This document shows positions 25,093 through 25,747 of a DNA stretch of 64,000 nucleotides, piece by piece; the stretch's first letter is position 1; the number at the start of each line of letters is the position of its first letter. Source of the DNA: Centroscyllium fabricii (lineage: Eukaryota); contig JBNRSN020000001.1 of NCBI GenBank assembly GCA_051313645.2, positions 472,750,001 to 472,814,000 on the forward strand, in the 5' to 3' direction. The translations under genes were made by a program, and so were the position numbers. The notes below the pieces were generated by a model. The model was given only the letters and a program-made list of their open reading frames with translations, was not told the DNA's origin and ran no database searches.

Positions 25093-25228
25093 GTACATTC
25101 ATTCCAAGGAAAAACCCTTCAAATGTCAAGAATGCGGTAAAGGATTTTGCCAGTCCAGAACATTAGCTGTTCACAAAACACTGCACGTGCAGGTAAAAGA
25201 GCTCAAACCCTCTAAGATAAAGTGCTGA
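25093..25228 (+). CDS. osr1: Osr1 second coding exon (finger 3); reads through to the canonical 3-finger C-terminus (259 aa), or splices at 25192
   Basis: Acceptor tttaatttag| at 25092 completes the Arg codon. Encodes [44 protein letters not shown], with TGA at 25226-25228. The VKELKxSKIKC end is characteristic of OSR1. Internal donor CAG|GTAAAA at 25193. Confidence 0.95.
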
Positions 25229-25537
25229 GTATAGAACCTGCAAACAGCACTCAGAATGCAACGTTGATGAAAGCCTATAACGCGGACATATCTGTCAAAT
25301 TTAGAAACAGCATAGACTATATCCATTCTGCTGCTGTTCTCTTCTGTTACTTTATTCCAATACAAAGAGATTATCTGTGGGATTCTACTATGGGAAGACC
25401 TGTGTCGTTTTCTAAAAACCCTTCTTTCAGTAGATCCTCCCTTGAAACGAGGGCGGTTGAACTGTGTCGCCCTTCATGATGTCCTCCGCCGTGAACTTGG
25501 AGTTGGAAGGTGATGCTTTGTCTTCTGTGTTTAACAG

Positions 25538-25747
25538 GAATCTCCGCACAACTGCCCGACGTGTGGCAGAATGTTTAATCAGAGAAGCAACCTGAAAACC
25601 CATCTCCTTACTCACACTGACATAAAACCATACAACTGCCGTCAGTGTGCGAAGGTTTTCCGGAGGAACTGTGACCTGAGGCGCCACAGCCTCACCCACC
25701 ACCCCATGGACAACACAGAACTCAAAAAAGCTGCAATATGTGGATAG
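25538..25747 (+). CDS. osr1: Alternative terminal exon encoding C2H2 fingers 4 and 5 (predicted 317-aa five-finger Osr1)
   Basis: Acceptor tgctttgtcttctgtgtttaacag| at 25537, phase 0, compatible with the donor at 25193. Stop-free frame ESPHNCPTCGRMFNQRSNLKTHLLTHTDIKPYNCRQCAKVFRRNCDLRRHSLTHHPMDNTELKKAAICG*. Not shown in the ORF track. Confidence 0.88.
   Translation, partial: ESPHNCPTCGRMFNQRSNLKTHLLTHTDIKPYNCRQCAKVFRRNCDLRRHSLTHHPMDNTELKKAAICG

Follow-up and report, generated by a model that had tools for sequence, protein, structure and literature searches.

The osr1 gene of Centroscyllium fabricii carries, downstream of the stop codon of its three-finger protein, an open exon for two further zinc fingers. 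On balance, the evidence favors a reading in which retention of the intervening intron dominates and minority splicing yields an ancestral five-finger Osr1 that is under relaxing constraint. The gene lies on the forward strand of the window, by which the whole stretch of 64,000 nucleotides that was analyzed is meant (Table 1). The donor that closes exon 3 (CAG/GTAAAA, 25192/3) falls on a codon boundary after 744 coding nt, that is, in phase 0. If intron 3 is retained, the Osr1 tail [15 protein letters not shown] is encoded in the first 36 nt of the intron, and the remainder, together with exon 4, is 3' UTR; the product has 259 aa and three fingers, stops at 25228 and has the C-terminus [11 protein letters not shown], a tail of the VKELK...KIKC type that marks it as Osr1. 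If intron 3 is spliced, exon 4 is coding and the product has 317 aa and five C-x2-C-x12-H-x3-H fingers at a spacing of 28 residues. The preliminary description had proposed this donor, a 345-bp gap, a phase-matched and stop-free exon at 25538-25747 and the two protein lengths, and every one of these coordinates holds. It had also called the exon 4 acceptor strong. A GT-AG acceptor is indeed present at 25537/8 (AACAG/G), preceded by 14 pyrimidines in 20 positions and by a candidate branch point near 25511; from these features, it would be rated good, not exceptional. The encoded fingers score above the Pfam cut-offs (zf-C2H2, 41.2 bits against 25.2; zf-H2C2_2, 47.4 against 40) and have the Cys2-His2 ligands, the core Phe and Leu, and the linker expected of such fingers.

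Table 1. Features of the osr1 locus, numbered from the first letter of the window.
Feature	Positions	Strand	Remarks
osr1 exon 1, 3' part	17046..17157	+	in-frame upstream ATG through donor CAG/GTAATC
osr1 exon 2	23952..24648	+	main ATG 24005, N-terminal domain, finger 1, most of finger 2
osr1 intron 2, splicing control	24649..25092	+	444 bp, GT-AG; skipped in 4/4 contig sets
osr1 exon 3 to optional donor	25093..25192	+	rest of finger 2, finger 3; boundaries as in osr2
osr1 intron 3	25193..25537	+	345 bp, phase 0, GT-AG; read through in 4/4 contig sets
Cryptic acceptor inside intron 3	25368..25370	+	GAG here; CAG in the four relatives, owing to C at 25367
osr1 exon 4, coding part	25538..25747	+	fingers 4 and 5 and a 15-aa tail; no stop before TAG at 25747
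AATAAA, likely poly(A) signal of both forms	26335..26340	+	first AATAAA/ATTAAA past either stop

The exon 1 stretch is matched by loose 5' ends of contigs that are joined at the 23952 acceptor (three of four runs), and its peptide matches the N-terminal extensions of chondrichthyan models. The in-frame ATG at 17046 would lengthen both forms by 55 aa, to 314 and 372 aa. This extension (MPTWVCAC...; 17046-17157 plus 23952-24004) is present in shark, ray, and chimaera models and is fast-evolving, with 24 changes in 55 residues to chimaera; it may or may not be used. Elsewhere in the window, minus-strand frames at 47194-48690 and 50126-52466 resemble a broken transposase of the PIF/Harbinger type together with its partner gene, and long minus-strand frames at 39141-42001 and 55109-57577 resemble a LINE endonuclease and reverse transcriptase. 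A tandem repeat at approximately 8950-9800 has a unit length of about 57 bp and is open in several frames.

The RNA set comprised 4 of 18 runs that, out of 24, were guessed to be RNA (none is recorded as such), from four related organisms and four studies with tissues unstated, and was read as assembled contigs, which drop rare variants. Intron 2 is skipped at its GT-AG boundaries, joining exon 2 to exon 3, in all four runs and exon 1 is carried in three, indicating that the contigs represent spliced transcripts. In each of the four runs, one contig spans both 25192/3 and 25537/8 unspliced, and contigs in three runs end at 26292, 26303, and 26341, adjoining the hexamer at 26335. Thus, the retained mRNA is the main form in these four samples of relatives, and exon 4 lies within its 3' UTR. 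The 25192-25538 junction was found in none of the four contig sets of related species, from which rare variants are dropped, and no Osr1-type junction of exon 3 to exon 4 was seen among 120 of 140 short protein matches, a weak test. The stop at 25228 lies in the last exon and the contigs list no GT-AG joint after it, which fits a shared poly(A) site and escape of the retained mRNA from junction-dependent decay. The preliminary description had predicted a retained mRNA that runs through exon 4 to this signal with no junction past its stop, and such an mRNA exists in the contigs of relatives; of its further claim that proteins of both lengths can be made, the three-finger half is borne out by all four contig sets and the five-finger half by none. 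For run X5, the listed differences to the window number 0 in exon 3, 6 in the 345 bp of intron 3, 3 in exon 4, and 24 in the 347 bp of 3' UTR beyond it; another 4 are unlisted. Set against 14 listed differences in 273 bp of later 3' UTR, the 6/345 of intron 3 is low (p 0.02). Since intron 3 is itself well conserved, slow DNA change accounts for part of the recent conservation of exon 4. It should be noted that an intron (25193-25537) better kept among relatives than the UTR beyond exon 4 could possibly hold RNA regulatory elements.

Over longer spans, exon 4 has the properties of a sequence that was selected as protein. In comparison with the last exon of the osr2 gene of this genome (55 codons), synonymous differences are saturated (pS 0.83) and non-synonymous ones are few (pN 0.07), which rules out recent copying and shows long protein-level selection on exon 4. 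Between the window and chimaera Osr1, fingers 4-5 differ at 2 of 51 residues, as opposed to 35 of 70 in the N-terminal extension and the tail past the fingers (Fisher p 1.7e-8). In a neutral simulation, 0.1 changes per site left an open frame with at most two changes in 33 of 20000 runs; at 0.2, none of the 20000 runs did so. Further, the zinc ligands, the core Phe and Leu, and helix positions -1, 2, 3, and 6 of fingers 4-5 are those of Osr2, hagfish, and lamprey. Given these observations, a five-finger Osr1 was very likely made through most of chondrichthyan history. At exon 4 residue 5 (25550-25552), adjoining finger 4, the window has Asn where 15 of 16 other rows (chondrichthyan, Osr2, cyclostome, amphioxus, and hemichordate) have Lys, the 16th row, Polyodon, being out of register; this is possibly a lineage-specific change.

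Predicted proteins of other cartilaginous fishes include both forms. A total of 38 chondrichthyan Osr1 entries comprised 22 that read through the donor, 11 that splice to exon 4, 4 that go elsewhere from the donor, and 1 fragment. Nine of the 11 entries spliced to exon 4 are five-finger proteins, from seven species, and all are automated predictions: Callorhinchus (XP_007898597.1), Heterodontus (XP_067873832.1, 317 aa), Cetorhinus (XP_078397640.1), Chiloscyllium (XP_043532360.1 and XP_072418822.1), Rhincodon (XP_048453331.1), and Pristiophorus (UniRef UPI00398ED59E) among them. Both forms are listed for chimaera, basking shark, and both bamboo sharks. Two of the four tails that go elsewhere map within the window: a whale-shark model (P0121, X4) joins the exon 3 donor to the cryptic acceptor inside intron 3, with all 11 residues of its tail matching the window from 25370, and the tail of an epaulette-shark entry from the same donor matches at 26877 at 8 of 10. 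A match of a Heptranchias tail at 25396 was discounted, since its four residues are too short. These tails are without a protein homologue and their simplest source is introns in RNA-seq data; therefore, the exon 3 donor is probably live in vivo. Among bony vertebrates, finger 4-5 motifs occur in 0 of 184 Osr1 entries (listed cluster members, proteins and not genomes). A search with the finger 4-5 region returned the sawshark entry as the only jawed-vertebrate Osr1 among the best 120 of 444 matches; as cluster representatives can hide long forms, up to 15 listed members per cluster were also read. Among structures, the sole Osr entry, 2ee8, covers fingers 1-3, and none covers fingers 4-5.

Compared residue by residue, the two parts of the finger array have fared differently. 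In all eight chondrichthyan Osr1 proteins compared, the 79 residues of fingers 1-3 are identical to those of the window. For fingers 4-5, the differences in 51 residues number 1 in horn shark, 2 in chimaera, 3 each in sawshark and basking shark, 9 in each of two bamboo sharks, 11 in whale shark, and 16 in catshark, whose model (marked 'low quality') has lost a Cys of finger 4; an electric-ray model enters exon 4 and stops 14 residues in. At the same fingers, the distance from shark Osr2 is 0-1 residues in four of five Osr2 rows and 3 in a teleost. Against sawshark, the conservation of fingers 4-5 (3/51) does not exceed that of the flanking peptides (7/70; p 0.52), and a core Leu of finger 5 is replaced by Gln in the sawshark entry. 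The differences of exon 4 to related species that are listed number three, all non-synonymous and one within finger 5. These comparisons show that exon 4 evolves faster than fingers 1-3 and suggest that its constraint is relaxing. The preliminary description had named a broken exon in relatives, combined with an absence of junction reads, as evidence that would refute a five-finger form; part of this was observed, the exon being broken in the catshark and electric-ray models.

In the favored reading, intron 3 would by default be retained, giving three-finger Osr1, and would occasionally be spliced, giving a five-finger Osr1 inherited from the ancestral vertebrate Osr gene; the latter would be a minor form because retention was seen in all four contig sets. 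The exon 3-exon 4 junction would still be made in this shark, and fingers 4-5 would, by analogy with Osr2A, extend or modify DNA or partner binding. Selection on the five-finger protein would have relaxed as it became dispensable, with osr2 supplying a five-finger protein and fingers 1-3 carrying the core function. The Osr2 variants are reported to have opposite activity, and finger number may therefore matter in some settings. Mouse Osr1 and Osr2 are reportedly functionally equivalent and largely interchangeable. This equivalence fits dispensable extra fingers, as do the very similar binding motifs of chick OSR1 and OSR2 (10.1101/165837) and the enlargement of the Xenopus pronephros by both human OSR1 and mouse Osr2A (PMC3042965).

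A less probable but serious alternative, to which we assign roughly one chance in four, is that exon 4 was coding in early cartilaginous fishes, is now without meaningful splicing, and owes its persistence in the 3' UTR to past selection and the slow evolution of sharks, the five-finger models in databases being products of Osr2-guided annotation. The junction missing from all four runs, the decay of the exon in catshark, electric ray, and carpet sharks (the last at 9-11/51), the lack of excess constraint relative to sawshark, and the conservation of intron 3 itself are all as it would predict, and the use of different acceptors from one donor in different species is what splicing noise would produce. 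However, the 1-2 differences in 51 residues that separate this shark, horn shark, and chimaera are hard to obtain without translation over most of that time, and contigs from four runs of unstated tissue drop exactly the rare variants at issue. Minority splicing is for these reasons preferred.

It is improbable, more so than the loss of splicing, that intron 3 is a regulated switch, through which efficient splicing in some tissues or embryonic stages would yield five-finger Osr1 as a main product with its own targets. Regulated retained introns are often conserved, and the excess conservation of intron 3 over the later 3' UTR would suit such a switch, as would the chimaera and sawshark five-finger entries, which are without an isoform label, and the production of both Osr2 finger forms by Xenopus at about 1:3 (PMC3042965). 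Yet four studies all gave the retained form, and repeated decay of exon 4 argues against an essential main product.

That the gene is osr1, as the preliminary description had it, is now well anchored. Its first 215 residues are 98% identical to the sawshark Osr1 entry and about 63% identical to Osr2 entries. In a tree of 24 rows, from sequence cut before exon 4, the window falls among chondrichthyan Osr1 and nearest to Heterodontus (99% over 246 columns), with a 6-row shark Osr1 set (95/85) inside an 8-row chondrichthyan set (82/98) and Osr2 as a separate set (92/98); the deep forks of this tree, cyclostomes included, are without firm placement. A search of the 7.2-Gb genome returned two Osr genes in all, that of the window and an osr2 on contig C1155 (at about 293.685 Mb), 53% identical to the window gene over the N-terminal 112 aa. 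All five matches to WDR35, a neighbor of human OSR1, lie on contig C1, about 7.8 Mb from the window, as a single linkage marker. Exon 4 and the last exon of this osr2 share 87% identity (E 1.3e-30), a likeness that is not due to chance and that agrees with the resemblance to fingers 4-5 of OSR2A stated in the preliminary description. Apart from that identity, nothing speaks for the window gene being osr2 or for exon 4 being a recent copy or conversion from it, and this reading is rejected as very improbable given the tree, the separate osr2, the WDR35 linkage, the saturated synonymous sites, and a finger 4 Met and finger 5 Arg that are shared with chimaera Osr1 and missing from all Osr2 and cyclostome rows.

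The intron after finger 3 has the same place and phase in osr2. On this ground, the Osr1 tail is, as had been proposed from the window, read-through of a phase-0 intron, coded by the start of an intron homologous to that of osr2. In this genome, the osr2 intron at that place has 695 bp, and the CAG that serves Osr2B as internal acceptor is present in osr2. Val-Lys follows the donor Gln in 171 of 184 bony-vertebrate Osr1 entries (listed members). The Val is forced by any GT donor; a Lys codon requires A at the +5 position, which is G in the donor consensus, and osr2 has Val-Ser here. A conserved Lys codon holds the donor +5 position at A, which may favor retention. A weak donor was rejected as a sufficient cause of retention, since the intron 1 donor is also without G at +5, yet is spliced in all three runs whose contigs reach it. 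In songbirds, two Osr1 models (isoform X2; P0478 and P0479) join the same donor to another short exon with the tail EIQR..., a hint that this donor remains usable in birds.

Similar pairs of forms are predicted for lampreys. A lamprey Osr gene has a five-finger model beside a three-finger read-through that ends HMQ-VKD-stop (X1 and X2; XP_032810691.1 and XP_032810692.1). Such paired models of one gene are listed in four lamprey species, and a second lamprey gene and one hagfish gene also have read-through entries. The start of these tails with Val, Lys, and an acidic residue hints that the retained form is older than the split of lampreys and jawed vertebrates, a thin likeness of three residues in predicted models. 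Five fingers occur in hagfish, lamprey, amphioxus, hemichordate, and insect relatives (including insect Sob) and in Drosophila Bowl (PMC11368183); five is therefore taken as the ancestral number from Bowl, Sob, amphioxus, and hemichordate Osr. Tentatively, and with somewhat less than even confidence, a wider history can be proposed in which the last intron of the first vertebrate Osr gene could be spliced, for five fingers, or retained, for three fingers and a Val-Lys tail, as the lamprey models suggest; the paralogues then split these isoforms, and some sharks and chimaeras still make a functional five-finger Osr1. After duplication, Osr1 would have kept the retained form and repeatedly lost the finger 4-5 exon (in bony vertebrates, catsharks, and the electric ray), with loss in progress in carpet sharks, and Osr2 would have kept five fingers and gained a new short form through a second acceptor. 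Some sharks and chimaeras would then represent exon loss caught midway.

Finger-number splicing of Osr2 is already known, and five-finger Osr1 already stands in the automated annotations of seven chondrichthyan species. A literature search, with most subscription papers outside its coverage, returned no paper that describes five fingers in Osr1, derives its tail from an intron, or notes a graded decay, and nothing on intron retention in osr1; two sources concern osr2 expression, not isoforms (PMC12999481; 10.64898/2026.02.08.704681). Osr1 is a central regulator of kidney, heart, and connective tissue and is described as the three-finger paralogue. If the history proposed here is correct, its C-terminal tail is the exonized start of an intron and its three-finger state is derived. 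Cartilaginous fishes would then show the exon in successive grades between intact and broken, and would offer both a testable example of splice isoforms divided between genome-duplication paralogues and a natural comparison for the contribution of fingers 4-5. The reach of these implications is limited by the long form being already in automated annotations and apparently minor, and by the interchangeability reported for the mouse proteins.

Among the closest known systems are the five-finger Osr1 models in RefSeq and UniRef, which join exon 3 to exon 4 as proposed for the window and give an almost identical protein; they differ in being predictions without comment that Osr2 alignments could have guided. 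Bony-vertebrate Osr1 has the same read-through tail as the shark three-finger form and differs in being without finger 4-5 motifs in the 184 protein entries. Bowl, Sob, amphioxus Osr, and hemichordate Osr resemble the long form in having five fingers and were compared by finger count alone. The lamprey genes have the same pairing of a five-finger form with a three-finger read-through as shark osr1, although these are predicted models with a tail of three residues, and their orthology to Osr1 or Osr2 is without firm placement. A further parallel is that of Osr2A and Osr2B, five- and three-finger proteins that arise by choice at the intron after finger 3 (PMC3042965). Intron 3 of the window gene has the position and phase of the corresponding osr2 intron of this genome, and tails of the Osr2B type are listed for many sharks, rays, and chimaera. 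Osr2B, however, is made through a second acceptor inside the last exon, with a frame shift and the tail TSSPT...; this internal acceptor is CAG in osr2 and CTG at the same site in osr1, and the short form of shark Osr1 is instead made by intron retention.
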